Below are positions 24,065 to 61,773 of a stretch of 64,000 nucleotides of DNA, piece by piece (position 1 is the first letter of the stretch; the number at the start of each line of letters is the position of its first letter). Below the pieces are notes generated by a model. It ran no database searches. It was given only the letters and a program-made list of their open reading frames with translations, and was not told where the DNA came from. A program made the translations under genes and the position numbers. This stretch comes from Candidatus Latescibacterota bacterium (GTDB lineage Bacteria > Latescibacterota > CBDCVA01), in the NCBI GenBank assembly GCA_965222935.1, contig CBDCVA010000001.1, forward strand, positions 28,389-92,388, in the 5' to 3' direction.

Positions 24065-24093
24065 TTGACAGACGGGAGCGGCGCGGCTATATT
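24065..24093 (+). promoter_or_regulatory. Sigma70-type promoter (TTGACA-17 nt-TATATT)
   Basis: TTGACA at 24065-24070, a 17-nt spacer, then TATATT at 24088-24093, immediately upstream of the riboswitch. Confidence 0.6.
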
Positions 24094-24099
24094 CGGGTG

Positions 24100-24290
24100 A
24101 CGCCACGGGTTCGGGTGCCGATCCAGTATGGGATCGGAACAGGGAAGTGCGGTTTTGAAGCCGCCGCGGCCCCGCCACTGTGAGCGATGCACCACCCCGG
24201 CGCACGATGCCACTGGGGGCATGAGCCCTTGGGAAGGCGCGCACGGGGGTGTCGCGAGCCAGGAAACCTGCCCGGCCCAGACGGTCGCAC
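24100..24290 (+). promoter_or_regulatory. Cobalamin (B12) riboswitch
   Basis: The hallmark segments appear in order: AGGGAAGTGCGGTtttgAAGCCgccGCGGCCCCGCCACTGT, then GCCACTGGG...GGGAAGGCG, then the B12 box AGCCAGGAAACCTGCC (24257-24273). Confidence 0.85.
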
Positions 24291-24347
24291 TGGACGCTTT
24301 CGAGGGGAAGGCGGTGACCGCGGCTTGCGAGCCGCAGGGGTAGGTTA

Positions 24348-24391
24348 CCCCCCGTCACTCCACCTCCGGAGAGGCGGGGGCGTTTTGTTTT
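24348..24391 (+). terminator. Candidate riboswitch expression-platform terminator
   Basis: An imperfect GC hairpin (cccccg...cctc cgga gagg cggggg) is followed by CGTTTTGTTTT. Confidence 0.4.
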
Positions 24392-24456
24392 AGTCCGCCC
24401 CCACCCCCGAACCTTTCTCTCCGAGAGCGCCCGGATGCCTCTCGAGGGAGAAAGCA

Positions 24457-26736
24457 GTGGCTCGAATCGGACACCTCGCTTCACCAGGACGGGCAACCCG
24501 CCCGCGAGACCTGCTCCTGGCCGCCGCGGTGGGGATCGTCGTTCACCTTCTGATCTTCACGCTTCCATATCGGCCCACATGGCTCTGGCGGCGAGCGGAG
24601 GCCCCCCGCTCCCCCGTGCGCGTCATCCTCGCGCCCCGTCAACCGCAAGCGGCACCAGCGCCGGCACCCGAACCCATCGCGCCACTGAAGCCTCGGACAT
24701 CCCCGCCTCCCTCGGCGCCGAGGGTGCCGCTCGAAGCGGCGCCGCCGCCCCAGGCTGCGCCGGAATCGGCCGGTCCACCGCCCGCGCAGCGCCCCATCGC
24801 GCCCGAGAAGCCAGTCGCGCCTTCCACGCTGGCCGCCCCCGCGCCGCCTCCCCCCGCAGAAACCCTGAGGGACCGACACGCCCGAGCGACGAGCATGGCC
24901 ACGGTCCTTGAGAGAGAAGACCTGGGGGCTGCCCTCGCGATCGACCTGGCGGGCGCGCTCGGCAGGCTGGCGGGCGTGGAGGTGCGCGAGTACGGGGGCC
25001 TGAGCGGGCTGGCGACGGTCTCGGTGCGCGGCGTGTCCGCGAGCCAGACGCTCGTGGTCGTGGATGGCATCCCCATGAGCGACGTCCAGACCGGCGGGAC
25101 GAACCTGCGCAGCATACCGCTCGATGAGGTGGAGCGCGTCGAGGTCATCCGGGGTCCGGCGGCGGCGCTGTACGGCGCCGATGCGGTGGGGGGCGTCATC
25201 GCGATTGCGACGCGGCGGGCGCAGGAGAGCGGGGTCGAGATCCGCTCCGAGCGCGGATTGTACGGTCTTGAGCGGTACGGCGTCGAGGGGCACTGGGTTG
25301 GGCGCGGTCTGGCGGTCACGGGGCTCTTCGGCCGGCATGGAGGTGATGGCGATTACCCGTACACCGGTAAAGACGGCTCACAGCGCATCCGGCGTAACGC
25401 GGGGTTCGATGAGTCGCACGGATTGGTACGCCTGCGGGCGGGCCGCCCTGGGCGCACGACCCTCGATCTCTTGTGGGAACGGACGCGGGATTTCAGGGAA
25501 GACCCGCCGGTGCTGGGTGGGGAGCCCCCTGGCAGCGATCCGTGGCGCGACCTGGAAGCCTGGGTGCGGGACCGTCGCGGGCGGGCGTACCTAACGCTGA
25601 CCCGGTCGCTCGCTCCGGGCATCGCGCTCGAGGCGCGCGCCGCGCGGCACGCTCTCACGCAGCGCCACATGGAGACCGCTTATGGTCCTCGCGCGCGTGT
25701 CGATACGGTGGCGACCGACTGGCGGCGGGCGACCACGCGGATGGCTAGCTTCGAGGCGCAGGCGGCGTTGGGCACCGAAGAGAGTACCCGCGCGAGCGCG
25801 CGCCTGGGTTGGGAGGGCCGCTGGGACGCGGTGCGAAGCACAAGCCTGGGCGGGAGCCGCAGGCGGCATGTCCGTCGTGCGGGCTGCCCTTTCGCCAGCG
25901 CGCTCGTGAGCTCGCCCCGGCTCGCACGGCAGTTGGGCGCCTCGTCCGCGAAGCTGCTTCTGGCGGGCCGGTACGACCGTTACAGCGATTTCGGCGGCCT
26001 GCGCAGCGCCAAGGTGGGCGCGACGGTCGCCTACGGCGATTCGGCCGGCCCGAAGGTGAGCCTTCGCGGCGGGTGGGGAACGGCCTATCGGGCGCCGACG
26101 ATGAACGAGCAATTCTGGTCGGGCTTCGGTGCCTCGGGCAATCCCAATATCCGGCCCGAACGCGCGGCGGGTTACGAGGCGGGGGCGGATTTCAACGCTC
26201 GCCGCCTGAGCGCCTCGGTGACGGCGTTCCGGACGACCATCGAGGATTTCATCCTCTGGTTCCGTTCCTTCGCCGCGTACTGGACGGCGCAGAACCTCGA
26301 CCGGGTGCGCACCCAGGGCGCGGAGGTGGAGGGGGCCTGGAGCGCCTGGCCGGGAAGGTTGGACATCAACTGGGCCTACACCTTTCTTGACGCGCGCGAC
26401 GCCCTCGGCGAGCGCAACCCCCTGTACGATGGAAAGTTCCTCGTCTATCGCCCCCGGCACGCGCTGGACGCCGAGGTAGCGCTTCGGCTGGGCGCAGCTC
26501 GCCTGGCGCTCGGCACGACCTATCGCTCGCGGCAGTACGTGACCCGCAGTAACACCAAGTGGCTCGGAGATTTCGCGACGTTCAACTTTCGGGTTGGCCA
26601 CCGCTTGTCCGTGCCCGGCGGAAGGCTCGCCTGGGGCCTCAAAGTCCTGAACCTGACCGATCGGGCGCACCAGTGGACGAGAGGCTACCCCCAGCCGGGA
26701 CGACTGTGGACGGTCACGACCGATCTCGAACTATGA
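24457..26736 (+). CDS. BtuB-like TonB-dependent receptor with an N-terminal TM anchor and proline-rich extension
   Basis: GTG start with GGGAG RBS, 65 nt after the terminator. The plug region GLATVSVRGVSASQTLVVVDGIPM...VEVIRGPAAALYGADAVGGVIAIATRR parallels E. coli BtuB. A ~550-aa barrel follows. Residues 1-145 are a TM helix plus a Pro/Ala-rich segment. Confidence 0.85.
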   Translation: MARIGHLASPGRATRPRDLLLAAAVGIVVHLLIFTLPYRPTWLWRRAEAPRSPVRVILAPRQPQAAPAPAPEPIAPLKPRTSPPPSAPRVPLEAAPPPQAAPESAGPPPAQRPIAPEKPVAPSTLAAPAPPPPAETLRDRHARATSMATVLEREDLGAALAIDLAGALGRLAGVEVREYGGLSGLATVSVRGVSASQTLVVVDGIPMSDVQTGGTNLRSIPLDEVERVEVIRGPAAALYGADAVGGVIAIATRRAQESGVEIRSERGLYGLERYGVEGHWVGRGLAVTGLFGRHGGDGDYPYTGKDGSQRIRRNAGFDESHGLVRLRAGRPGRTTLDLLWERTRDFREDPPVLGGEPPGSDPWRDLEAWVRDRRGRAYLTLTRSLAPGIALEARAARHALTQRHMETAYGPRARVDTVATDWRRATTRMASFEAQAALGTEESTRASARLGWEGRWDAVRSTSLGGSRRRHVRRAGCPFASALVSSPRLARQLGASSAKLLLAGRYDRYSDFGGLRSAKVGATVAYGDSAGPKVSLRGGWGTAYRAPTMNEQFWSGFGASGNPNIRPERAAGYEAGADFNARRLSASVTAFRTTIEDFILWFRSFAAYWTAQNLDRVRTQGAEVEGAWSAWPGRLDINWAYTFLDARDALGERNPLYDGKFLVYRPRHALDAEVALRLGAARLALGTTYRSRQYVTRSNTKWLGDFATFNFRVGHRLSVPGGRLAWGLKVLNLTDRAHQWTRGYPQPGRLWTVTTDLEL

Positions 26737-26769: not shown

Positions 26770-28128
26770 ATGCGACGTCTGCCCCGGACCCTGGCGGCCG
26801 CCGTACTCTTCGGCCTCAACCTCGCAGCGCCGGGCCGCGCCGACGAATTGGCGTACGGCGTCAATAGTCAAGACGAGACGGTGTCGATCTTCAACCTGAC
26901 GACAGGCGAGGTGCGCCCTAACGTCCTGGTCACGGGTGAGACCCCCGGTTCCATCTTCGTGCGCGGAGACCGCGCCTTCATCGTCAATTCGGCCGACAAC
27001 AACGTTCAGGTCGTGAACTTGCGGACCAACGCCACCGAGCAGTTCATCCCGACGGGCGACGGTTCGAACCCGTGGGACATCGCGTTCGGACCGGATGGCC
27101 GCGGCTACGTGACCAACCTGAGGACGCATGAAGTCATCGTGGTGGATCTCGGGACGGGCGCCACGCTCAATCGCATCCCCGTGGGGGGATCGCCGGAGGG
27201 TCTCGCCTTCGCGCGCGGTAAGCTGTACGTGGCGAACACGGGCTTCGTCCGGTTCGACGGGGAGTTGGGCCGTTCCATCTACGATCCGGGTGTGATCTCG
27301 GTCATCGATCCGGGGACGGGGAGCGTGGTAGGTGAGATCGCCGTGGGCAGCAACCCGCAGTACGTGGTACTCGATCCCGAAGGTAACTTGCTGGTCGCCC
27401 AAACGGGGGATTTCGCGGAGATCTTCGGCAGCATTGAGGTCATCGATACCTCGACCGACGCGGTGGTCACGACGGTCCCCATCGAGGCCTTCCCGGGTCG
27501 CATCGCCGTGACGCCGGAGGGCAAGGCTTACGTCACGGTCTTCAAACCCGATTTTACCAGCGCGGTGGTGGTCTTCGACGCGCGCAGCCGGACGTTCGTC
27601 CGCGGGCCTGGCGACCCCATCGAGGGGATCGCCGCCGCCTTCTTCGCCGCTGTGGCGCCGACGAGCGGCCATGTGATCGTGGCGGGATCGAACTTCTTCG
27701 ACGTGAACAAGCTCTACGTCATCGACCCCGAGACGGACGCGGTGATCGGAGAGTTCGACGGCGGAGTGGGGCTGAGCAGCGTCGCGGTCTACGACTCCGA
27801 GCGGCCCACAGCCGTGGCCGAGATCCCTTCACCCGAGCTGCCGGCGCGCTTCGAGTTGGGCTCCGGTTTCCCGAACCCCTTCAATCCCACGGTGACCCTG
27901 TCCTTTGCGCTGCCGGGTCCGGACGCGACGCCGGTTCGGCTCGCCGTGTTCGACGCCCGAGGGGCGCGCGTCACCAAGCTCGTGGAAGGCCGCCTGCGGG
28001 CGGGTCTTTACCGCGCGACGTGGGATGGCCGCGATGAGGGAGGAAGACCGGTCGCGTCGGGCGTCTACCTGATCCGCATGGAGACGGACGGGTTCGGCGC
28101 AACGCGCGCGGTAACCCTCGCGCGCTGA
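26770..28128 (+). CDS. YVTN-type beta-propeller surface protein with T9SS/FlgD-Ig-like C-terminal domain
   Basis: AGGAGG RBS and signal peptide MRRLPRTLAAAVLFGLNLAAPGRA. Repeats of the YVTN/LYVAN/AYVTV type. The C-terminus is GFPNPFNPTVTLSF...WDGRDEGGRPVASGVYLIRM...AVTLAR. Confidence 0.8.
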   Translation: MRRLPRTLAAAVLFGLNLAAPGRADELAYGVNSQDETVSIFNLTTGEVRPNVLVTGETPGSIFVRGDRAFIVNSADNNVQVVNLRTNATEQFIPTGDGSNPWDIAFGPDGRGYVTNLRTHEVIVVDLGTGATLNRIPVGGSPEGLAFARGKLYVANTGFVRFDGELGRSIYDPGVISVIDPGTGSVVGEIAVGSNPQYVVLDPEGNLLVAQTGDFAEIFGSIEVIDTSTDAVVTTVPIEAFPGRIAVTPEGKAYVTVFKPDFTSAVVVFDARSRTFVRGPGDPIEGIAAAFFAAVAPTSGHVIVAGSNFFDVNKLYVIDPETDAVIGEFDGGVGLSSVAVYDSERPTAVAEIPSPELPARFELGSGFPNPFNPTVTLSFALPGPDATPVRLAVFDARGARVTKLVEGRLRAGLYRATWDGRDEGGRPVASGVYLIRMETDGFGATRAVTLAR

Positions 28129-42321: not shown

Positions 42322-44028
42322 ATGTCCGACCGGCCTCAGAGGTTCCTGGCAGTTCTCCTTTTGTCCTGCCTCTCGGCTGGGGCGCTACGGGCCGCGGAAC
42401 CCGTCTCGACCTACCTCCCTCTCGATCACCGCGCTTACGATGCCCTCGAACGCTGGGAGGCCAAGGGCCTCCTGCCCCGCCTGGCCGATGGCACCCGGCC
42501 GCTCTCCCGGCTCGACGTCGCCCGTGCCCTCGACCGGGTGTGGGGCGCGCGCGACCAGGAGCCGGGCCTGTCGTCGGTCGAACGGGCGGATCTCGTGTGG
42601 CTCGCCGACGAATTCGCTATCGAGTTGGAGGCGTTGGACGCAGGCCTCAAGGGGAAACGTCCCGATCGCGAGCGTGGGCTCCGCAGGTTGCTGAGAGGCG
42701 GCCCCCTGGCCCGCTGGGAGAGGTCCGACGCCACGCTGGAAGTGGACCTGATGGTCAAGGGCGAGGCGATCGTGGAGCGGGGCGACCTGCGCGAGACGAC
42801 CCGCGTGACCACCAGCGGGGGCATCGCCCGAGGAACGCTGGGGGAGACGTTCGCCTTCTATAGCCGCTTTCGCGAGACGCGGGAGCGGGGCACCAAGTTC
42901 TACAACACCCCCGATGTCCTCAGCACACGGCGCGTCGGCTTCGTCAAGCTGCGCGACGATTTCGCCGATTACGACGAGGGCCTTGCCTACGTACTGGTCC
43001 GCCTGAGGTGGTTTCTGATCGAATTCGGCCGCGATGCGCTCCAATGGGGCCCCGGTGCGCGCGGCAGCCTGATCCTTTCGCCCTCGGCGCCTCCCTTCAC
43101 GATGGTCAAGCTGGAAACGCATTACGGTCGGCTCAAGTACATCGCGCTGGGCGGCGTCTTGCGCACCGAAGAACTCGATTCCTTGAAGATTTACCAGGTC
43201 GGACCCCTCCTGCGCAAGGATTTCCGAAAGAAGGCCATCGCCGCGCACCGGCTGGAAGTGGCGGCGACCGACTGGCTGGATGTGGCCGCCAGCGAGGTCG
43301 TCATCTACGGCGACCGGGGTCTGGACATGGCGTACTTCAACCCCGCCATCGTCCTGCGGGCCGCAGAGCGCGACCAGGGAGACCGCGACAACGCCACCGC
43401 GGCGCTGGACCTGGAGGCCCGCTTGCCCCGCCGAATCAAAATGTACGGGGCGCTCTTCATCGACGACCTGACCAAGTCGAAGGTCGGCACGAGCTTCTTC
43501 GGCAACAAGCTGGCCTGGTTGGGCGGTGCCTTCTGGGTGGACCCCTGGCGGCTCGTGAACACCGACTTCCGCTTCGAGTACGCGCGGTTGGACCCCTTCG
43601 TCTACACCCACACCTTCGGGGTCAACGCCTTCACCAACTGGCGGGCCTCGCTCGGGCATTGGCTTGATCCCAACTCGGACGAGTGGTATCTTGAGGCGCG
43701 GCATCGGCCCCATCGGTCTCTCCGGGTCGAGTTGGCGCTTTGGGGTCGGCGGCACGGAGCGAATCCGCCGGGAGCCAACTTCGGAGGGGACCTGCGTCTT
43801 GGCTCGTCGGTGCAAGCCGGCGCGGGGGGCGAGTTTCTCGCGGGCGAGCGTGAGCGCGAAACGGCGTTTCGGACCCGGCTCGTCTACGAGCCGATCCGCG
43901 ATCTGCTCGCCGTTTTCGATTATCGGCACCGACAGTTGCGCAACGTCCTTGGGAAGGATCTTTCGGGGCCAAGGGGGGACGAACTGCGTCACGAGTTCCG
44001 TTTCATCATCGGCTACAACGATTTCTGA
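42322..44028 (+). CDS. Capsule-assembly Wzi-like outer-membrane protein
   Basis: Signal peptide FLAVLLLSCLSAGALRA. The N-terminal motif PLDHRAYDALERWEAKGLL...RPLSRLDVARAL is typical of the Wzi family (from memory). The rest is beta-rich and ends in an aromatic residue (YNDF). Confidence 0.65.
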   Translation: MSDRPQRFLAVLLLSCLSAGALRAAEPVSTYLPLDHRAYDALERWEAKGLLPRLADGTRPLSRLDVARALDRVWGARDQEPGLSSVERADLVWLADEFAIELEALDAGLKGKRPDRERGLRRLLRGGPLARWERSDATLEVDLMVKGEAIVERGDLRETTRVTTSGGIARGTLGETFAFYSRFRETRERGTKFYNTPDVLSTRRVGFVKLRDDFADYDEGLAYVLVRLRWFLIEFGRDALQWGPGARGSLILSPSAPPFTMVKLETHYGRLKYIALGGVLRTEELDSLKIYQVGPLLRKDFRKKAIAAHRLEVAATDWLDVAASEVVIYGDRGLDMAYFNPAIVLRAAERDQGDRDNATAALDLEARLPRRIKMYGALFIDDLTKSKVGTSFFGNKLAWLGGAFWVDPWRLVNTDFRFEYARLDPFVYTHTFGVNAFTNWRASLGHWLDPNSDEWYLEARHRPHRSLRVELALWGRRHGANPPGANFGGDLRLGSSVQAGAGGEFLAGERERETAFRTRLVYEPIRDLLAVFDYRHRQLRNVLGKDLSGPRGDELRHEFRFIIGYNDF

Positions 44029-45176
44029 TGTTTCTCCTGACGCTGGCGGCGGGCTACACGCTGCTTTTGGCCGTTCTGCTTTGGGGCTGGCGGCGGGACG
44101 TTCGCCGTGCGCGGGAGCGCCCTCCGGCCACACCCGAGGCGACCCCTTTCGTCTCGGTTCTGGTCGCGGCCCGGAACGAGGCGCGGACGTTGGGCCGCTG
44201 CCTCGAAGCGCTTCTAAGGCAGGATTATCCGAGCGATCGCTACGAGGTCATTGTCATCGACGACCGTTCGACGGATGCGACTTGCGAGGTCGCCCGAATG
44301 CATGCAGCGCGTGACGCGAGGATACAGGTCGTCCTCAAGCGTTCCGAGGGGCCCTACCGCTGCCCGAAGAAGAGTGCGCTTGCAGCGGCGATGACGAAAG
44401 CGCGCGGGGAGATCATCGCGACGACCGACGCGGACTGCTGGGCTGAGACGGGATGGCTCCGGGCGATGGTGAGCCGATGCACCCCTGAAGTCGGCATGGT
44501 CGTCGGCGCCTCACCGGTTGCCGGGGCGCGGACGGCCCTCGAGCACCTGGCCGCGCTGGAATCTCTTCTGGTGCCCATCCTGGCTCGCTCGGCGATCGGC
44601 CTGGGCTGGCCGCTGGCGTGCACGGGGCGGAGTCTGGCCTACCGCCGCGAGGCTTTCGACCAAGTCGGCGGTTTCTCGCGCATCGGCGGTGTCGTCGGCG
44701 GGGACGACGTGTTGCTGCTGCACGAGCTGCGCAAGAGGACGCAATGGAGGGTCGCTTTCTGTCCACTGGAGGGGGCGCTCGTGTGGACGCTCCCCGATCG
44801 CGGCACGACGGCGGCGCGTTCGCACCGTCTGGTCCGCCGCGCTGCGAAAGCGCTCTGGCAGGCGCCTACGCAGATCCTTTGCGGGCTGTGGGTCGTGGCG
44901 TTCTACCTGGCTCTCGTCTGGGCGGCCTTTGATGCGCTCGGAGGGGGAGATCCGATGCCCTTGGTCCTTGCGCTGGCTGCCAAGCTCGGAGTGGACGCGC
45001 TGGTCATGACGCGGGGGACCCGGGCCTTCAAGGTTCGCGCGCTGGAGCGCTGGATCCCGCTGGGGAGCCTCTTGCACGTCATCGCCTTTCCTACGGCGCA
45101 CCTGCTGGGCGTACTCGGGACTTACCGCTGGCCGGCGAACGCTCCTCTGGCGACCCCCTCGGGGAGCGAGGCGTGA
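44028..45176 (+). CDS. Membrane-embedded family-2 glycosyltransferase (copy 1)
   Basis: N-terminal TM, then SVLVAARNE...VIVIDDRSTDAT...TTDADC, then a C-terminal TM bundle. The Q/RxxRW position is degenerate (HRLVRRAAK). The start overlaps the Wzi stop (TGATG). Confidence 0.85.
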   Translation: MFLLTLAAGYTLLLAVLLWGWRRDVRRARERPPATPEATPFVSVLVAARNEARTLGRCLEALLRQDYPSDRYEVIVIDDRSTDATCEVARMHAARDARIQVVLKRSEGPYRCPKKSALAAAMTKARGEIIATTDADCWAETGWLRAMVSRCTPEVGMVVGASPVAGARTALEHLAALESLLVPILARSAIGLGWPLACTGRSLAYRREAFDQVGGFSRIGGVVGGDDVLLLHELRKRTQWRVAFCPLEGALVWTLPDRGTTAARSHRLVRRAAKALWQAPTQILCGLWVVAFYLALVWAAFDALGGGDPMPLVLALAAKLGVDALVMTRGTRAFKVRALERWIPLGSLLHVIAFPTAHLLGVLGTYRWPANAPLATPSGSEA

Positions 45177-46240
45177 CCCTCGCCGCGCGTGCCGCTTACG
45201 CCTGGCGCAAGTTCGGCTGGGCGCTCACGCCCCGCAGGCTGGCCAACTTGGCGATGGTGACCGCCTCGTGGCACTTCTCGCGGTGGACCGGGCGGGCGGT
45301 CGTCTGGGGTACGCCGCCGGTGTTGATGGCCGAGCCCACCGATGTCTGCAACCTGCGCTGCCCGCTCTGCCCATCGGGGGCGCTCACGCTCACGCGGCCG
45401 CGGGGATACATGGATCTGGAAACCTTTCGGCGTTCTGTGGACACCCTGGCCGACCGGCTGTGCCTGCTTCTGCTCTGGAACCAGGGCGAGCCACTCCTGC
45501 ACCCCGATTTCTGCGAGATGGTGCGTTACGCGACGAGCAAGCGCATCCCCACCATGACCAGCACCAACGGCAATTGGCCCCGCGCGATGGAGGCCGACCC
45601 CACGCCGCTCGTGCGCTCTGGTTTGCGGGAGCTCATCGTCTCGCTGGATGGGGCGACGTCCGAGACCTATCGCGTCTACCGCAAAGGCGGGGATTTCGAC
45701 CGCGTGCTTCAGAACATCCAGAACGTGCAGCGGGTCAAGCACGAACTGGGGAGCCCCACGCCGCTTTTAACCCTCCAGTTCATCGTCATGCGTCACAACG
45801 AAAGCGAACTGGAAGACATCCAGAGGCTGGCGAGAGAGCTGGGAGTCGAGCGGCTTGCGGTCAAGACCTGTCAGGTCTATACCGAGGGGGAAGCGCAGAC
45901 CTACCTGCCCGGTGACGAGCGGTTCAGCCGCTACGAACGCTCGCCCGACGGCGGCTTCCGCATGAAGGCGAAAAGCCTTCCCAACGTCTGCCGGCATCTG
46001 TGGTTCAACACCGTCGTCAACTGGAACGGGACCGTCACCCCCTGCTGCTTCGATAAGGACGCCGAATTCCCCCTGGGCCAGGCGGCAAACGGCCAACCCT
46101 TCTCTGCGGTGTGGCATGGGGCGGCCTACCAGACCTTCCGGCGGCGGGTGATGGAGCGGCGTCCGGGGATCGCCATGTGCACCAACTGCTCGGAGGGGCT
46201 TAAAGGTGGGCTCTTCGTGAGCGTGGGGCCCATCGCGTGA
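45173..46240 (+). CDS. Radical SAM enzyme with a SPASM-like Cys-rich C-terminal domain (copy 1)
   Basis: CNLRCPLC (CX3CX2C) and C-terminal CRHLW...TPCCFD...MCTNC. The start is a GTGA overlap with the upstream GT2. Confidence 0.85.
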   Translation: MTLAARAAYAWRKFGWALTPRRLANLAMVTASWHFSRWTGRAVVWGTPPVLMAEPTDVCNLRCPLCPSGALTLTRPRGYMDLETFRRSVDTLADRLCLLLLWNQGEPLLHPDFCEMVRYATSKRIPTMTSTNGNWPRAMEADPTPLVRSGLRELIVSLDGATSETYRVYRKGGDFDRVLQNIQNVQRVKHELGSPTPLLTLQFIVMRHNESELEDIQRLARELGVERLAVKTCQVYTEGEAQTYLPGDERFSRYERSPDGGFRMKAKSLPNVCRHLWFNTVVNWNGTVTPCCFDKDAEFPLGQAANGQPFSAVWHGAAYQTFRRRVMERRPGIAMCTNCSEGLKGGLFVSVGPIA

Positions 46241-47451
46241 AAGCCCTGGCACACGCGGCGACCGCCGGTCTGGCCGTCACGGGGGCGCTCTACGGCGGAT
46301 TCTTGATCGCTTACGCGGTGGGCTTGTGGCGGCTGCGGCGCGGGCGTTCGGACGTCCAGCCTTCGGTCAGCGTCGTCGTGCCGGCGCGTGACGAGGAGGA
46401 AAACATCGGGGCGTGTCTGGCAGCGCTATCCGAACAAAAGTACCCGACGGACCGCTTGGAGATCGTCGTGGTGGACGACCACTCGGCGGATGCCACCGCG
46501 GACATCGTCTCGGAGTGGGCGGGGCGGGATGACCGAATCCGGGGCATTCGGGCCCCCGAGCCGCCGGCTGGCGTTGCGCCCAAGAAGCACGCCGTCGAGG
46601 TGGGAATCGAGGCCGCGAGCGGTGAGGTGATTGCGACGACGGATGCCGATTGCGTGCCCGGACCGGGCTGGGTTCGGGGACTCGTGCGCCACCTGACGCC
46701 CGACGTGGGGGTCGTTGTGGGCTTGACTGAGTACGACCTGAAGGGCGTGCGATGGCGTTTTCTTCAGGGTATGAACGCGCTGGATTTTCTCACCCACACC
46801 TTTTGTCGAGCCGGTGCCCTGGGCTTGGGCTGGGCCTGCGATGCCAATGCCAACAACTTCGCCTACCGCCGCAGTGCCTATGAAGCGGTGGACGGGTTCG
46901 GGGAGGCGCGGCGCCTTACCTCCGGTGACGACGCCATGCTCATGACGCGGATTGCCACGCGGACCTCCTGGCGCGCCGCTTTCGCGTCTGAGCCGGAAAC
47001 CTTCGTCTGTACGCGGCCCGAAGCCTCCTGGCGCGCGTTCTGGCGGCAGCGGATGCGCTGGGCCTCGAAGGGCACCGCCTACCGGCCGTCTTTCGTCATT
47101 TTCTTGACGGGCGCCTTCGGGTTCTTCGCGCTCTTGTCCACGACGCTTCCTTTCGCTCTTGCCGCACCCAGGGCGTTCAGCGCGCCCCTTTGGGCGTGGC
47201 TGGCCAAAGGAGGGGTTGAAGCCTTCGTCATGGGCGTGGGTGCCTGGCGGTTCCGCCGCTTCGGGCTTTTACCTTATTTTCTACCGGCTCAACTCCTGCA
47301 CGCGCCCGTTATCGTGCTCGCGGTCTTGGGCGGCCATCTGACCCGGTTCGAGTGGAAGGGCCGGGCGCTGGGGCGGAGCGTCCCGGTCGCCCCTGCCGGG
47401 GCCACGGATACAGCGAGGGTGGATGCTGATGCGCTATCTCCCGGTAAGTAA
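46237..47451 (+). CDS. Membrane-embedded family-2 glycosyltransferase (copy 2)
   Basis: SVVVPARDE...IVVVDDHSADAT...TTDADC...QRMRW, plus N- and C-terminal TM helices. GTGA overlap with the upstream gene. Confidence 0.88.
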   Translation: MKALAHAATAGLAVTGALYGGFLIAYAVGLWRLRRGRSDVQPSVSVVVPARDEEENIGACLAALSEQKYPTDRLEIVVVDDHSADATADIVSEWAGRDDRIRGIRAPEPPAGVAPKKHAVEVGIEAASGEVIATTDADCVPGPGWVRGLVRHLTPDVGVVVGLTEYDLKGVRWRFLQGMNALDFLTHTFCRAGALGLGWACDANANNFAYRRSAYEAVDGFGEARRLTSGDDAMLMTRIATRTSWRAAFASEPETFVCTRPEASWRAFWRQRMRWASKGTAYRPSFVIFLTGAFGFFALLSTTLPFALAAPRAFSAPLWAWLAKGGVEAFVMGVGAWRFRRFGLLPYFLPAQLLHAPVIVLAVLGGHLTRFEWKGRALGRSVPVAPAGATDTARVDADALSPGK

Positions 47452-48388
47452 ATACGCCCGGACGGCGGCTTACACGATGCGGAATCTCGCCAGTGGCGAT
47501 ATCCGCTATCCGTTCTACGCCTCCTACAAGATCACCCGCCGCTGCAACTTCACCTGCAGCTACTGTGAGATCTGGCGTGAGCCGAAACCGGAACTCTCGC
47601 CCGAAGACGCGCTGCGCGTGATCGAGAATATCGGGCGTTCCAGCACCGCCATGCTCGCGCTGGAAGGGGGCGACCCGCTTCTGCGCGACGATATCGAAGA
47701 GGTGCTCCGGTTCGCGCACAAGCAGCCGTTCTACATCCTGTTCGTGACTAGCGAGCGCAATCTCCTAGAGCGGCCGATGGAGCGGCTGACGCGCTACATC
47801 GATTTCCTGCATATCTCCATTGATGAGGGGCACCGCAATCTGGAGATGTTCGACGAGCTGGAAGAATACGTCAGGTGGCACTCGACCGTTTGCGTTCAGA
47901 TCGTCGTCCGTGCGCGGGACCTGCCGGAACTCCCGTGGAAGATCGAGCGCTGCGCTCGCGCGGGCGCCAAGGCGCTCATCATGCCCGCGGTGCATCTGGA
48001 TCGCACCAAGAACCAATACCCCGAGATCGAGGCGTTCAGGCGCGATTGCCGGGCGCTCGATAACCGCTTTCCCGACACGGTGATCACCCCCGAGCCGTAC
48101 CTGGAGCAGATTGCCAAGCCCCACGGCTGCAGCGCGTCCTCGATCATCATCGATTCCGACGGCGCTCTCTTCTACCCATGTCGTATCCTGGGCACCAAGC
48201 CCGTGAACCTCGTCGAACAGGACTTAATGGCGTATATCGAATCTCCCGAGGCCCTGGAGTTCCGTAGAGTGATGAAGGTCTGCGAGCGGCGCTGCGGCTG
48301 GTATCAGTACTTCGCCACGACGGCCTTCGTCTCGCCCTCGACCTTCATGGGTGCCATCCGGCCCTATCTGAAAGACCTCGTCCGGTGA
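47423..48388 (+). CDS. Radical SAM enzyme (copy 2)
   Basis: CNFTCSYC motif, with C-terminal cysteines (HGC...YPC...VCERRC). It overlaps the GT2 stop by 29 nt. Confidence 0.85.
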   Translation: MLMRYLPVSKYARTAAYTMRNLASGDIRYPFYASYKITRRCNFTCSYCEIWREPKPELSPEDALRVIENIGRSSTAMLALEGGDPLLRDDIEEVLRFAHKQPFYILFVTSERNLLERPMERLTRYIDFLHISIDEGHRNLEMFDELEEYVRWHSTVCVQIVVRARDLPELPWKIERCARAGAKALIMPAVHLDRTKNQYPEIEAFRRDCRALDNRFPDTVITPEPYLEQIAKPHGCSASSIIIDSDGALFYPCRILGTKPVNLVEQDLMAYIESPEALEFRRVMKVCERRCGWYQYFATTAFVSPSTFMGAIRPYLKDLVR

Positions 48389-49620
48389 GCGGGTGGGGGC
48401 TTCTGATGGCGGCGCCGGGGGTGCTCTACCTCTTGGCTGCCGCCGTGCTGGCGCTTCGCGTCCGGGGTGTCCGCCCCGGGAAACTGGCTCTCCACCCAAA
48501 GGCCTCCGTGTTGCTCCCGGTGCGCGATGAGGCGGAGAACATCGAGGCCGCATTGGGGTGTCTGTCCCGGCAGACCTATCCGCTGGATCAGCTCGAGATC
48601 CTGGTCATTGACGACGGCTCTGGGGATGGCACGGCGGAGCGTGCTAGGCGCGCCGCGAAAGGCCCCCCTCGGGTGCGTGTGCTCAAGACGCCGCCCCTCG
48701 ATCCGGGCATCACGGGCAAGCAGGGGGCGCTCGACTACGGGTTGCGGCGCGCGACGGGGACGGTGATTCTGACGACGGATGCGGACGTACGCGTATCGCC
48801 GACGTGGGTGGCGGAGCACGTCTCGAGGCTACCCCCGCATGGCGAGCGCCTCATTTGCGGGTTGGCCCTCCCCGCGGGTACGAAGACGGGCTTGGGGCGG
48901 CTCTTGTCGTGGTTTGAGGCGGGGGAGCTGCTCCTGCTCCAGACGGTGGCTGCGGGATGGACGGGCCTCGGACGGCCCCTGTCGGGTTTCGGGAAAAACC
49001 TGAGTTACGAGCGGAAAGTCATGGAAGACCTCGGTGGCTACCGCGCGCTGGGCTTCGCTCCCAACGAGGACATGCGTCTCGTTCAGCGCGCAGGACGCCG
49101 CGCCGTTGGCTGGGCCGGCGGTCGCGCGGCGACGGTGCTGGTCTTACCCTCATCGGGTCTGGGGACGCTCCTGCGGCGACGGGCGCGGTGGGCGCGCCAT
49201 GGCTACCGGACGGACCCGTGGCTGTTCGGTTCGTCGCTGGTGGCCTTTCTGAGCGCGCTGGGGACGCTCGGGGCCATAGGCAGTGTCATAGCGCTCGGGA
49301 ATGGCTGGCTCGGGGTGCTGGGCGCCGGACCGCTCGCGCTGGGGAACCTCCTGCTCCTGGCCCGTGGCGCCGCGTTTGCGGGTCGGCCCAGGCTCGTGTG
49401 GTCGTGGCTGCTCGTGCTGGTGGGATACCCGTTCTACGTCATGGCGCTCGGATTGTGGACGGTACTGGGTCCGCGTGAGACCGCCTGGCGCGGGCGGCCG
49501 ATGGAAGCGCCGCCACCCCCATCGAAGCCGCGCAGCCGACGCTACGGGAGGCGCAGGCGGGGACAATCGGCGCAGCGTCAGCGTCACGGTGCATCGAGAC
49601 CGCAAGGAGAAAGGCGGTGA
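48385..49620 (+). CDS. Membrane-embedded family-2 glycosyltransferase (copy 3)
   Basis: SVLLPVRDE...ILVIDDGSGDGT...TTDADV...RRARW with a C-terminal TM bundle. GTGA overlap. Confidence 0.88.
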   Translation: MSGWGLLMAAPGVLYLLAAAVLALRVRGVRPGKLALHPKASVLLPVRDEAENIEAALGCLSRQTYPLDQLEILVIDDGSGDGTAERARRAAKGPPRVRVLKTPPLDPGITGKQGALDYGLRRATGTVILTTDADVRVSPTWVAEHVSRLPPHGERLICGLALPAGTKTGLGRLLSWFEAGELLLLQTVAAGWTGLGRPLSGFGKNLSYERKVMEDLGGYRALGFAPNEDMRLVQRAGRRAVGWAGGRAATVLVLPSSGLGTLLRRRARWARHGYRTDPWLFGSSLVAFLSALGTLGAIGSVIALGNGWLGVLGAGPLALGNLLLLARGAAFAGRPRLVWSWLLVLVGYPFYVMALGLWTVLGPRETAWRGRPMEAPPPPSKPRSRRYGRRRRGQSAQRQRHGASRPQGERR

Positions 49621-50627
49621 GGCTCCCACCCCTCCTGCTGCACTATTACGTCACGTACCGCTGCAACCTGCGCTGCCACTACTGCAACATCCCACTCCAG
49701 CCGGAACCGACCGATCCCGTGGGCTCCTCGTTGGCGACGCTCAAGGCCGTCGTAGCTCAGGCGCGGAAGGTCGGCGCCCGCTTCGTGGATTTCACGGGTG
49801 GAGAACCCCTCCTTTACAAGGCTCTGCCCGACGCACTGGCCTGGGCCAAGTCCCTCGGCTACTGGACGAGCATTACCACCAACTGTACGCTCTACCCCCG
49901 ACGGGCGGACGCCTTGCGCGGTCTGGTTGACCTGCTGCACTTTTCGCTCGATTCGGCCCATCTCGGGGCGCACGATGCTCAGCGCGGCAGCGGCAACTGG
50001 GCCGAGGTGATGACGGCGCTCGATCTGGCGGAGCGGCTGGGCGAGACGCCCGACGTTTTGTTCACCGTGACGCAGGCGAACGTCGGCGAGATGGAGAGCA
50101 TGGTACGGCTGGCGCAGGAGCGTCGCTTGATTCTGATCGTCAACCCCGAGTTCACGTACTTCGGCGGGAACGGGTCGCTCACACAAGCGCAATTTCAAGA
50201 GATCGCCGGCTACGCGTGGGAGCCCTACGTCTACCTGAACCGCGCCTTCCTCAGCCTGCGTCGGCAAGGCGGAAACCGGATCGACAAGCCCCGATGCCGG
50301 GCGGTCACCTCCACCATCGCCGTCTCCCCCGATGGCTGCCTCCTGCTTCCCTGCTACCATCACCACACCGAGCGCATCCCCATCAGGGATAACCTCCGGG
50401 AACTGCTGGATTCCCCAGCCGTCGGCCGCGCACTCCGAATGCAGGGCCGCTACGATTTCTGCGAAGGCTGCGCCATCAACTGCTACATGGACCCCTCCTT
50501 CTGTTACCGGCCCGATGGCCTCTTCTTCGAGAGCCTCGCCTCCAAGGCGAAGTACGGCTTCGACAAATATCTTCGCCGGGCCATTGCGGAACGCCTTGCC
50601 CCGCGTTCGCGGAACGGGGCATCGTGA
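49617..50627 (+). CDS. Radical SAM enzyme with a twitch/SPASM-like C-terminus (copy 3)
   Basis: CNLRCHYC, with C-terminal PCYHHH...FCEGCAINC. GTGA overlap. Confidence 0.85.
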   Translation: MRLPPLLLHYYVTYRCNLRCHYCNIPLQPEPTDPVGSSLATLKAVVAQARKVGARFVDFTGGEPLLYKALPDALAWAKSLGYWTSITTNCTLYPRRADALRGLVDLLHFSLDSAHLGAHDAQRGSGNWAEVMTALDLAERLGETPDVLFTVTQANVGEMESMVRLAQERRLILIVNPEFTYFGGNGSLTQAQFQEIAGYAWEPYVYLNRAFLSLRRQGGNRIDKPRCRAVTSTIAVSPDGCLLLPCYHHHTERIPIRDNLRELLDSPAVGRALRMQGRYDFCEGCAINCYMDPSFCYRPDGLFFESLASKAKYGFDKYLRRAIAERLAPRSRNGAS

Positions 50628-60355: not shown

Positions 60356-60976
60356 TCAGCGGGCTTCGAGCGGCGCGCCGAAGAAGGCCAGCTCGCACCG
60401 CATCGCGTAGCGATAGACATCGCGCACCGGGGGCGTGTCCTCGGACAGGCGATCCAGCAATCTCTCCAGCCGTGCGGCGAGCGCAGCGAAGTCGGCGCTG
60501 CTGTACGTGGCGATCCAGTCGGCGTAGGCGTGGTCGGGGACGCCGTCGCGGGCCAGTTCGGCGCCCAGGAAGGCGTACAGCCGCATGCAGGGCGTCATCG
60601 CCGCGACCGTCTCGCTGAGGCCCCCGCCCCAGGCGGCAGCGAGCAGGAAATCCGTATAGGCGCTGGTGCTCCGCCAGGGCTTCGCCCCGGCGAGGTCGAT
60701 CCCCAGCGTCCTCGCGTAGGCCGCGTGCAGCTTCAATTCTTCGAGAACGCCGCCTAACAGTTCGTGGAAATCGGCGATGGTCTCGGTGGCCTCGCTCCGC
60801 GCAGCGGCGAGGGCATAGGCGCGGGCGAAGGCGCGCAGGAAGAAGGCGTCCTGGGCGACGTAGCGCTTGAACGCCCCCTCGTCGAGCGTCCCGTCGGCGA
60901 TGCCCCGCACGAAGGGATGGTCAAGGCATGCGCGGGCCAGGTCCTCGTTCGCTCTCCAGAGCTCGGCGCTGAGCAT
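60356..60976 (-). CDS. TenA family thiaminase II/aminopyrimidine aminohydrolase (Cys-type)
   Basis: HPFVRGIADGTL...YVAQDAFFL and the active-site-like MTPCMRLY. Confidence 0.8.
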   Translation of the reverse strand: MLSAELWRANEDLARACLDHPFVRGIADGTLDEGAFKRYVAQDAFFLRAFARAYALAAARSEATETIADFHELLGGVLEELKLHAAYARTLGIDLAGAKPWRSTSAYTDFLLAAAWGGGLSETVAAMTPCMRLYAFLGAELARDGVPDHAYADWIATYSSADFAALAARLERLLDRLSEDTPPVRDVYRYAMRCELAFFGAPLEAR

Positions 60977-61582
60977 CTAGCCCTCCCATGTCATCCGCCA
61001 GAAGGCCGCCTCGTGCCGGAGGGCCTCGTTGAAGGCCTCCTGGGCCCTGGGGTGCGGATTCGCCTCCTGGGCTCGGCGCAGGGCATCCACATAAGCTGCG
61101 AACTCGGGACTCGACCAGCGCCCGATGAACTCGGCGTAGGGCCCGGCGGCTTCGAGCGCGCTCCATGCCGCCAGATAGCTCACCTCGACCCCGTAGAGGA
61201 TCGCCAGCAGCACCGGGTGGGGCTCGGTGTAGGCGGCCCGGAGCAGGAAATCCGTGTAGTGGCGGCAGACCGGGTGCAGGGGGGCGTCCAGCGCCAGGTT
61301 GCGCTCCCTGGCGTTCGCCTCGAACCAGTCCAACTCGGCGTCTATGGCGCCTAGGCCTGCGATGAGCGGCTTGTGGTGGAGTCTGGGGGTCTTGGCTGCG
61401 GCCACGGCTTGAAACGACAGCAGGCGCAAGGCGAAGTGGTAGTCCTGGACGAGCCAGCGGGCAAAAGCCTCCTCGGGCAGTGTCCCCGCCTGAGCGGCAT
61501 CGAGGAAGGCGGCATGGGTCGCTCCCTCCCATAGCGTTCCGGCGCGCCCGATGAGCGGGCTATCGGTCGGGGTTGACATCAT
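60977..61582 (-). CDS. TenA-like family protein (no active-site Cys)
   Basis: Start ATGATG at 61582 (GGAAAGGA RBS). It has FLDAAQAGTLPEEAF..WLVQDYHF. The stop abuts the next start (TAGATG). Confidence 0.75.
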   Translation of the reverse strand: MMSTPTDSPLIGRAGTLWEGATHAAFLDAAQAGTLPEEAFARWLVQDYHFALRLLSFQAVAAAKTPRLHHKPLIAGLGAIDAELDWFEANARERNLALDAPLHPVCRHYTDFLLRAAYTEPHPVLLAILYGVEVSYLAAWSALEAAGPYAEFIGRWSSPEFAAYVDALRRAQEANPHPRAQEAFNEALRHEAAFWRMTWEG

Positions 61583-61629
61583 GCAGCCATCCTTTCCGCC
61601 GTGCGTGCTGGCCGCTCGATCGGGGCCCC

Positions 61630-61773
61630 TCACGCCAGGTGAGATTCGTGGTCTTGATCGTCGGTGTCGTCGCGTCCGGCGATGGAATCGCGCCTCAGGC
61701 GCCCTGCGGCCACCACCGCCCCGACGATGGCCAGGCCCAACAGAATGATCGCCAGCCAGGTCTCATGCGTCAT
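61630..61773 (-). CDS. 47-aa single-TM hypothetical peptide
   Basis: MTHETWLAIILLGLAIVGAVVAAGRLRR..., upstream of the TenA pair. A duplicated, disrupted copy lies at 61864-62016. Confidence 0.35.
   Translation of the reverse strand: MTHETWLAIILLGLAIVGAVVAAGRLRRDSIAGRDDTDDQDHESHLA

Follow-up and report, generated by a model that had tools for sequence, protein, structure and literature searches.

The 64,000-nucleotide stretch of DNA analysed here, referred to as the window, comes from a Candidatus Latescibacterota bacterium (contig CBDCVA010000001.1 of assembly GCA_965222935.1, positions 28,389 to 92,388 of the forward strand) and has a G+C content of 64%. It contains a gene for a BtuB-like TonB-dependent transporter, predicted to take up corrinoids, whose 146-residue N-terminal extension consists of a membrane helix with a conserved histidine, a short proline-flanked strand and a long proline-rich arm. 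As judged from sequence, the N-terminus is most likely a conserved signal-anchor that stays in the inner membrane rather than a cleavable signal peptide, and a canonical TonB box is absent ahead of the plug. In the best reading, which is given a probability of about 40%, the helix stays on the mature protein as an anchor, the chain bridges the periplasm, and anchor, strand and arm would together be a built-in counterpart of TonB's N-terminal half, linking the plug to an ExbBD-type motor. The resemblance to TonB appears to be one of layout only, and the self-energising mechanism is a plausible hypothesis rather than a finding.

Layout of the N-terminal extension

The same arrangement is found in two further contigs. 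L001 is 98% identical to the window, and L018 represents a second lineage, whose orthologous protein is 70% identical and has the same extension layout behind the same riboswitch. L018 comes from an assembly of 2x coverage in which every gene is frameshifted; its extension holds one frameshift, at an A5 homopolymer, and the protein is 759 residues long after repair. The parts of the window gene are listed below. Invariance is given relative to L018, helices and the predicted local distance difference test (pLDDT) are taken from an AlphaFold2 model, and the ratio of non-synonymous to synonymous substitution rates (dN/dS) is that between the two lineages.

24457..26736, + strand: whole open reading frame (ORF) of the putatively anchored BtuB-like TonB-dependent transporter, 759 residues, with a GTG start and a good ribosome-binding site
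24457..24510, + strand: residues 1-18, arginine-rich tail MARIGHLASPGRATRPRD, presumed cytoplasmic, net charge +3; MARI, G11, R12 and PRD invariant
24511..24564, + strand: residues 19-36, single hydrophobic helix LLLAAAVGIVVHLLIFTL; His30 and HLLIFTLP invariant; modelled helix 16-35
24565..24612, + strand: residues 37-52, juxtamembrane segment PYRPTWLWRRAEAPRS; PTWL and RAE invariant; modelled short helix 41-47
24613..24636, + strand: residues 53-60, proline-flanked, strand-like PVRVILAP (PVRVTFAP in L018), beginning 17 residues past the helix; PVRV and AP invariant
24637..24861, + strand: residues 61-135, proline/alanine-rich spacer of about 75 residues, predicted disordered; pLDDT below 50; dN/dS 0.72
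24862..24894, + strand: residues 136-146, TLRDRHARATS, junction of spacer and plug; 11/11 residues identical; dN/dS 0.05; modelled helix 137-145

Residues 19-37 (LLLAAAVGIVVHLLIFTLP) form the sole strongly hydrophobic 19-residue window in the protein, with a mean Kyte-Doolittle hydropathy of 2.46, and the helix at 19-36 is the only export signal that the protein contains. The arm from the end of the helix to the plug measures 110 residues. Proline accounts for 33% and alanine for 23% of residues 60-146, and the extension includes VILAPR and the stretch QPQAAPAPAPEPIAPLKPR. In an alignment with 91 relatives, TLRDRHARATS adjoins the stretch that holds the TonB box in those relatives.

Residues 1-143 have no Pfam match at E <= 1, and this negative result includes the STN, CarboxypepD_reg/NTE and AMIN modules. 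A degenerate CarboxypepD_reg domain was also considered and rejected, as the region is 33% proline, is predicted to be disordered and has no Pfam match. The NCBIfam family GltJ matches the N-terminal region weakly (E = 0.0045, 16 bits against a cut-off of 450), a match that is probably driven by composition.

Most of what an earlier, sequence-only reading had described in this region stands, namely an ORF that starts 65 nucleotides past a riboswitch terminator with a ribosome-binding site, a positively charged stretch followed by a single histidine-containing hydrophobic helix with no A-x-A cleavage site, and a canonical plug directly after the extension with no recognisable TonB box before it. 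The proline/alanine-rich stretch that it placed ahead of the plug is likewise present, at a length of about 87 residues instead of about 100.

Translation and constraint of the extension

The pattern of single-nucleotide polymorphisms (SNPs) and the conservation of the orthologue show the extension to be translated and under selection as part of the protein. Contigs from other public runs have 22 population variable sites in the extension, 13 of them at codon position 3, with 14 synonymous and 8 non-synonymous changes. Read in the other two frames, the same 22 SNPs give 2/20 and 6/16 (P = 0.0013), and there are no indels. L001 also keeps the frame throughout the extension; its changes there number 15 synonymous and 10 non-synonymous, again without indels. 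As a separate observation, the density of codons changed relative to L001 is roughly threefold higher in the extension (25/146) than in the remaining gene (35/613), and synonymous changes are likewise denser there (15/146 against 24/613).

A comparison of the two lineages gives dN/dS values of 0.21 for residues 17-61, 0.17 for the plug and 0.23-0.24 for the barrel, compared with the much higher value of the spacer and the very low value of TLRDRHARATS; constraint on the anchor thus equals that on the barrel. His30, HLLIFTLP, PTWL, RAE, PVRV and APR are among the positions that are invariant in both lineages. The dN/dS values and the invariant positions therefore point to sequence-specific roles for anchor, strand and junction motif. 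The spacer would need composition and length alone.

Gene callers began both orthologues at Met147 or Val148 (P0001, P0012). Taken at face value, these two automatic calls favour an annotation artefact, in which the extension is an untranslated leader, the true start lies near Met147 and the gene is non-functional or its product is exported in some other way. This explanation is highly improbable. A start at codon 147 gives no signal peptide, Met147 is replaced by alanine in L018, and selection in the frame of the extension is evident both from the SNPs and from dN/dS. The GTG codon is preceded by a ribosome-binding site that lies within a regulated hairpin; there is no in-frame start upstream of GTG 24457, and the in-frame starts at codons 25, 54, 90 and 147 all lack a ribosome-binding site and give no signal peptide. 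Purifying selection on plug and barrel, as measured by dN/dS, also makes a pseudogene unlikely. The sequence-only reading had proposed that orthologues starting downstream of the extension would speak against it; the automatic calls do so, yet Met147 is not conserved and the frame of the extension is kept in L018. Its use of G/C-rich third codon positions as evidence of coding did not hold up as well, as the third-position value of 0.73 in the extension, against 0.81 at first positions, says little.

Even if the proposed coupling to a motor should prove wrong, these loci indicate that gene callers trim the proline-rich N-termini of such receptors, which makes the architectures invisible in protein databases.

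Probably retained anchor and missing TonB box

The mean hydropathy of the helix over 19 residues lies in the top 2.5% of the N-termini of 159 relatives. A loose signal-peptidase motif, defined as [AVSTGILC]-x-[AGS]-[not P] for positions -3 to -1 and the residue that follows, was sought after the hydrophobic core. It occurs soon after the core in 137/137 relatives with a signal-peptide-like core and is absent from that position in the window protein and in the L018 protein. AEA at residues 47-49 precedes a proline and is not conserved. One weak cleavage site is left, between IFT and LP, with Thr35 at -1 and Ile33 at -3. The constraint on the anchor region (dN/dS 0.21) is above what would be expected of a plain signal peptide.

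Several other identities for the N-terminus were considered and rejected. A Tat signal would need a twin arginine, which is missing; a lipoprotein is rejected for want of a cysteine in residues 1-146. An ExbD-like N-terminus, hinted at by Asp18 on the boundary of the helix and by an LLIF string, was set aside because there is no Pfam match to ExbD and the spacing is closer to that of TonB.

In the comparison with 85 relatives, (E/P)(I/V)VVTATR occurs in most of them, about 12-14 residues ahead of the first plug strand. A scoring matrix was built on the TonB-box sites of these relatives and was used to scan the first 170 residues of the window protein. No TonB box was found there, as no site exceeds 4.1 bits and the relatives' own sites reach a median of 20.9 bits. 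For the best matrix score in shuffled sequence, the median is 2.1 and the 95th percentile 8.0, and both the window protein and L018 fall within this range. The top-scoring, non-significant site in the window protein is VRVILAPRQP in the PVRVILAP region; the best in L018 is EPVTPATPFP at 4.7 bits, with the strand scoring 4.4 there. At the place of the TonB box in the alignment with 91 relatives, the window protein reads PVAPSTLAAPAPPPPAETLRDRHARATS.

These results bear on a second explanation, in which the signal is cleaved or otherwise processed (for example at the weak IFT-LP site or by another protease) and leaves a long disordered spacer on an outer-membrane receptor that an ordinary TonB energises in trans. 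PVRV(I/T)(L/F)A would then be a displaced TonB box, or TLRDRHARATS a docking site. Relatives commonly have a cleavable signal peptide, a proline/alanine-rich spacer of 30-50 residues and a TonB box (P0004, P0007), and the receptor at locus L019 likewise has a proline-rich (TP)n stretch ahead of its plug. Thr35 and Ile33 are conserved and, at -1 and -3, would formally permit cleavage, the strand is the best TonB-box site in the window protein and close to the best in L018, and free tonB and exbBD genes adjoin the orthologue. These points are set against a strand score that is within the shuffled range and under the 5th percentile of real sites, the lack of A, G or S at -1 past the hydrophobic core, a long and very hydrophobic helix, and an anchor that is unusually constrained for a peptide to be discarded. 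On balance a cleaved signal is unlikely. PVRVILAP itself is best described as a candidate, either for a D-box analogue, as set out below, or for a displaced TonB box.

Resemblance to TonB and TolA

The helix of TonB and TolA carries the SHLS motif, Ser-x3-His-x6-Leu-x3-Ser (PMC12905483). A proline-flanked strand, the D-box or R-box, lies 10-15 residues past the helix with the pattern hydrophobic-polar-hydrophobic-polar-hydrophobic-hydrophobic-polar; the D-box binds the ExbD dimer, and a proline-rich linker comes next (PMC10907165, PMC12905483). The window protein shares several of these elements. It has one N-terminal helix with a conserved histidine, followed by a proline-flanked strand of alternating hydrophobic residues that begins 17 residues past the helix, as compared with 10-15 in TonB. 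PVRVILAP fits 5/7 positions of the D-box pattern and PVRVTFAP of L018 fits 6/7, with a role in binding ExbD being putative; the D-box peptide of E. coli TonB, residues 43-54, is QPISVTMVTPAD. His30 and Val54 are 24 residues apart, and His20 and Ile45 of E. coli TonB are 25 apart. A proline-rich segment of periplasmic length follows in both proteins; in the window protein it is predicted to be disordered and total protein length is conserved. By our own arithmetic, the distance from the end of the helix to the plug is 110 residues, compared with about 118 from the end of the helix to the C-terminal domain in E. coli TonB.

In other respects the two differ. The SHLS positions read G26-x3-H30-x6-P37-x3-T41 in both lineages, so that 1/4, the histidine, matches. 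The TonB_C domain (PF03544) is lacking, and the chain instead runs on into plug and barrel. Since SHLS is incomplete, TonB similarity was not found and TonB_C is absent, the window protein is not a member of the TonB family. The sequence-only reading had stated that TonB has exactly this layout, which was an overstatement given that only the histidine of SHLS is present and that no sequence similarity is detectable. Of its two proposals, an uncleaved signal-anchor or a tethered self-energising receptor, the structural elements have survived (a sole export signal without a cleavage motif, a missing TonB box and an anchor dN/dS of 0.21); homology to TonB is not supported, as no sequence similarity was found, SHLS is incomplete and TonB_C is absent.

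Proposed mechanism and the points that weigh against it

In the proposed mechanism the anchor would remain within the inner membrane, while one continuous chain would cross the periplasm by way of the proline-rich arm and terminate in the plug of the outer-membrane barrel to which it belongs. The helix with His30, the PVRV strand and the 110-residue arm would take over the function of TonB's N-terminal half. Together these parts may engage an ExbB/ExbD-type motor and pull the plug directly, with the covalent link taking the place of a TonB C-terminal domain docked on a TonB box, a contact that has been lost. Stated in full, this would be a natural single-chain transporter in which the plug of a B12 receptor has a TonB-like anchor, an ExbD-binding strand and a proline arm fused directly to it, both the TonB box and the TonB C-terminal domain are dispensed with, and ExbBD pulls through a covalent link; this more specific claim is put forward as less likely than not.

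There are a number of points against such coupling. Only the histidine of SHLS is kept, and the 5/7 fit of the strand could equally be that of a TonB box. A BLASTP comparison of the extension with L018 TonB and with E. coli TonB, an alignment that the sequence-only reading had in mind, gave no match. Pfam gave no TonB-related match in the window protein, and a search of PDB sequences with the extension returned nothing at E <= 10. A profile of the N-terminus (alignment A3, 70 residues) found no match at E <= 10 among 5.8 billion proteins; gene callers had trimmed the extension, which is therefore absent from that database. The extension itself was found in three contigs from two lineages only. 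The periplasmic flank of the helix has a net charge of +3 in the window protein, and the positive-inside rule is therefore not clear-cut. The absence of a canonical TonB box is also not unique to this protein, as a few relatives with normal signal peptides are likewise without a recognisable one and score low at their own sites. [quoted passage not shown]

The distribution of motor genes counts in both directions. No exbB, exbD or tonB was found in the window or in L001. In L018, as listed here, they lie next to the orthologue; the presence of a motor there supports the coupling, and the free TonB gene speaks for energisation in trans.

L018 4592-6468, same strand as the riboswitch: exbB, exbD and tonB, directly upstream of the riboswitch

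The tonB gene is frameshifted by assembly error and has a weak TonB_C match (E = 7e-4). The presence of exbB, exbD and tonB, which the sequence-only reading thought worth establishing, is thus confirmed for L018 and not for the window or L001. The extension, which it proposed to seek in B12-regulated orthologues, is present in L018, behind a cobalamin riboswitch (RF00174), and in L001.

A third explanation keeps the uncleaved anchor and makes it a passive tether for localisation, assembly or regulation, e.g. near an inner-membrane B12 importer or in envelope sensing, without engagement of ExbB/ExbD; the receptor would be energised through another contact or be inefficient. It draws on the same evidence for retention as the coupled anchor, and on the incomplete SHLS motif and the lack of TonB similarity. 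Many single-pass inner-membrane proteins have proline-rich periplasmic linkers, which also counts in its favour. As a passive tether, however, the protein would be a plugged barrel that has lost its TonB box and has no evident energy input, and the invariant histidine of the helix and the proline-flanked strand at TonB-like spacing would be unexplained coincidences. This explanation is distinctly unlikely.

The coupling of anchor to motor must also be read against the state of the field. Force transmission by ExbBD through TonB is unsettled, and a 2026 review (PMC12905483) calls the wrap-and-pull model "largely speculative", with no in-vitro activity assay. If the proposal were true, recognition of the TonB box by the TonB C-terminal domain would be dispensable for force transmission, and the protein would offer a 1:1 complex of motor and receptor for structural and single-molecule work. 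A further question would then be how barrel assembly can proceed in a protein that is bound to the inner membrane.

Receptor body and adjacent propeller

Residues 147-759 form a BtuB-like plug and barrel that were modelled confidently. The domains and the next gene are as follows.

24886..25197, + strand: plug domain, Pfam PF07715, residues 144-247, E = 1e-24; pLDDT above 90
25447..26655, + strand: 22-strand beta-barrel, Pfam PF00593, residues 331-733, E = 5e-39
26770..28128, + strand: partner gene, next after the receptor, for a YncE/NHL/BtuG-like beta-propeller with a FlgD_ig C-terminal domain (Pfam)

The AlphaFold2 model was built from 92 aligned sequences and has an overall pLDDT of 84.6 and a predicted template-modelling score of 0.81, with plug and barrel above 90. 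Its fold matches in the PDB are TonB-dependent transporters throughout, and ranks 1-17 are BtuB from E. coli and Bacteroides thetaiotaomicron (E about 1e-37 to 1e-33; target TM-score 0.84-0.87, with one deep-learning model at 0.73). Sequence identity to the solved BtuB structures is 17-21%. The BtuB equivalogs of NCBIfam are the best-matching families, yet the scores are far under the cut-offs (161.4 against 599.7 bits for TIGR01779 and 130.5 against 836 bits for NF007926).

The propeller matches the BtuG1 chain of B. thetaiotaomicron (8blw_B) in a PDB sequence search with E = 2.8e-9, and it is probably a BtuG-like cap that captures B12. Its FlgD_ig C-terminal domain suggests that it is not attached in the way the BtuG lipoprotein is. 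Synteny of riboswitch, receptor and propeller extends to L001 and L018. The riboswitch, the BtuB-like fold and the BtuG-like neighbour therefore mark the unit as a BtuB/BtuG-like uptake module with an intact TonB-dependent transporter for corrinoids (B12-type), the transport role being predicted.

Promoter, riboswitch and translation start

The leader of the receptor gene contains the following elements.

24065..24093, + strand: sigma-70-like promoter TTGACA-17-TATATT, directly 5' of the riboswitch, 11/12 consensus positions matched
24096..24289, + strand: cobalamin riboswitch aptamer RF00174, full-length model match, 82.5 bits against a gathering score of 31.5
24363..24392, + strand: intrinsic-terminator-like stem (24363-24380) and T-run (end about 24392), forming the expression platform
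24413..24456, + strand: hairpin sequestering the ribosome-binding site in the minimum-free-energy fold; helix preserved in L018, where both partners of 2 pairs have changed

Promoter-like sites of this kind occur on average 0.1 times in shuffled sequence. The aptamer is found in the orthologous locus L018 as well, at 97.1 bits. The distance from the end of the T-run to the GTG is 65 nucleotides, and the ribosome-binding site GAGGGAG (24444-24450), which lies within the hairpin, precedes the GTG by 6 nucleotides. Regulation in which B12 turns off the receptor gene through a terminator riboswitch is the best explanation of this arrangement.

RNA contigs assembled from 4 sponge metatranscriptomes span only 24106-24401, from leader to terminator, and leave the ORF nearly uncovered. 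Their ends fall at 24340-24401, at or near the terminator. Such coverage fits a working transcription-termination switch that was sampled in its off state. The terminated riboswitch leader seems to build up in situ in these sponge samples. As the leader is found in public sponge metatranscriptomes, the bacterium is probably sponge-associated.

Relatives and database searches

In the nearest relatives (27-38% identity), the plug is preceded by a signal peptide, a CarboxypepD_reg domain and a TonB box. When 1.84 billion representatives were searched exhaustively with HMMER, a single close cluster emerged, P0012, through which L018 was identified; the other top 149 of that search all lack an N-terminus made of a helix and a proline-rich stretch. 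JGI metagenome contigs yielded no relative when scanned with the full-length alignment A4 or with the N-terminal alignment A3. A scan of GTDB species genomes returned only distant TonB-dependent transporters, mainly through the plug region and mostly from Bacteroidota. A protein-database search with L018 TonB returned only itself, and jackhmmer and phmmer searches across all fetched loci turned up neither another TonB nor a paralogue of the anchor.

Other architectures were seen among these loci. Upstream of P0006 (29% identity), positions 1-155 of L019 hold an in-frame (TP)n repeat that runs to the contig edge ahead of the plug; the gene call for P0006 began just ahead of the plug and hid this proline-rich stretch. 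P0042 (890 residues) joins a BtuF-like periplasmic binding domain to plug and barrel, and P0044 (902 residues) has a weak ECF S-component-like multi-helix region, CarboxypepD_reg, plug and barrel; each is an apparent fusion or a merged gene call. Elsewhere in the window, 44028-50627 is a cluster with two family-2 glycosyltransferases, three radical-SAM genes (one with a SPASM domain) and an ORF at 48385-49620, and 60356-61633 holds two TENA/THI-4 genes in tandem.

Comparison with known systems

The closest functional counterparts are the BtuB-BtuG systems, represented by E. coli BtuB and by BtuB1-3 of B. thetaiotaomicron with their BtuG lipoproteins (PMC10404256). The window receptor shares with them the fold, the cobalamin riboswitch and the adjacent YncE/BtuG-like propeller. 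Unlike them, it has no TonB box or apparent cleavable signal peptide and begins with a 146-residue anchor and arm.

An extra module of about 100 residues before the plug is in itself familiar. Examples are STN in FecA and FpvA, NTE/CarboxypepD_reg in SusC-like proteins and most of the relatives found, and AMIN in cyanobacterial receptors (bioRxiv 10.64898/2026.07.30.741596). The CarboxypepD_reg domain of the nearest relatives is similar in length to the extension of the window protein. These modules, however, are folded, periplasmic and placed behind a cleaved signal peptide, with the TonB box kept, whereas the window protein has a membrane helix and a disordered proline-rich arm. In the literature found, STN, NTE and AMIN are the known N-terminal additions and no natural fusion of TonB to a receptor is described.

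A more distant comparison is with spanins, whose outer-membrane attachment is a lipid anchor and not a beta-barrel. Unimolecular phage spanins (PMC6139136) have no relation to the window protein in sequence or in function, which is lysis in the one case and uptake in the other. If the anchor is retained, the two would be alike in that a single chain is attached to both membranes across the periplasm.

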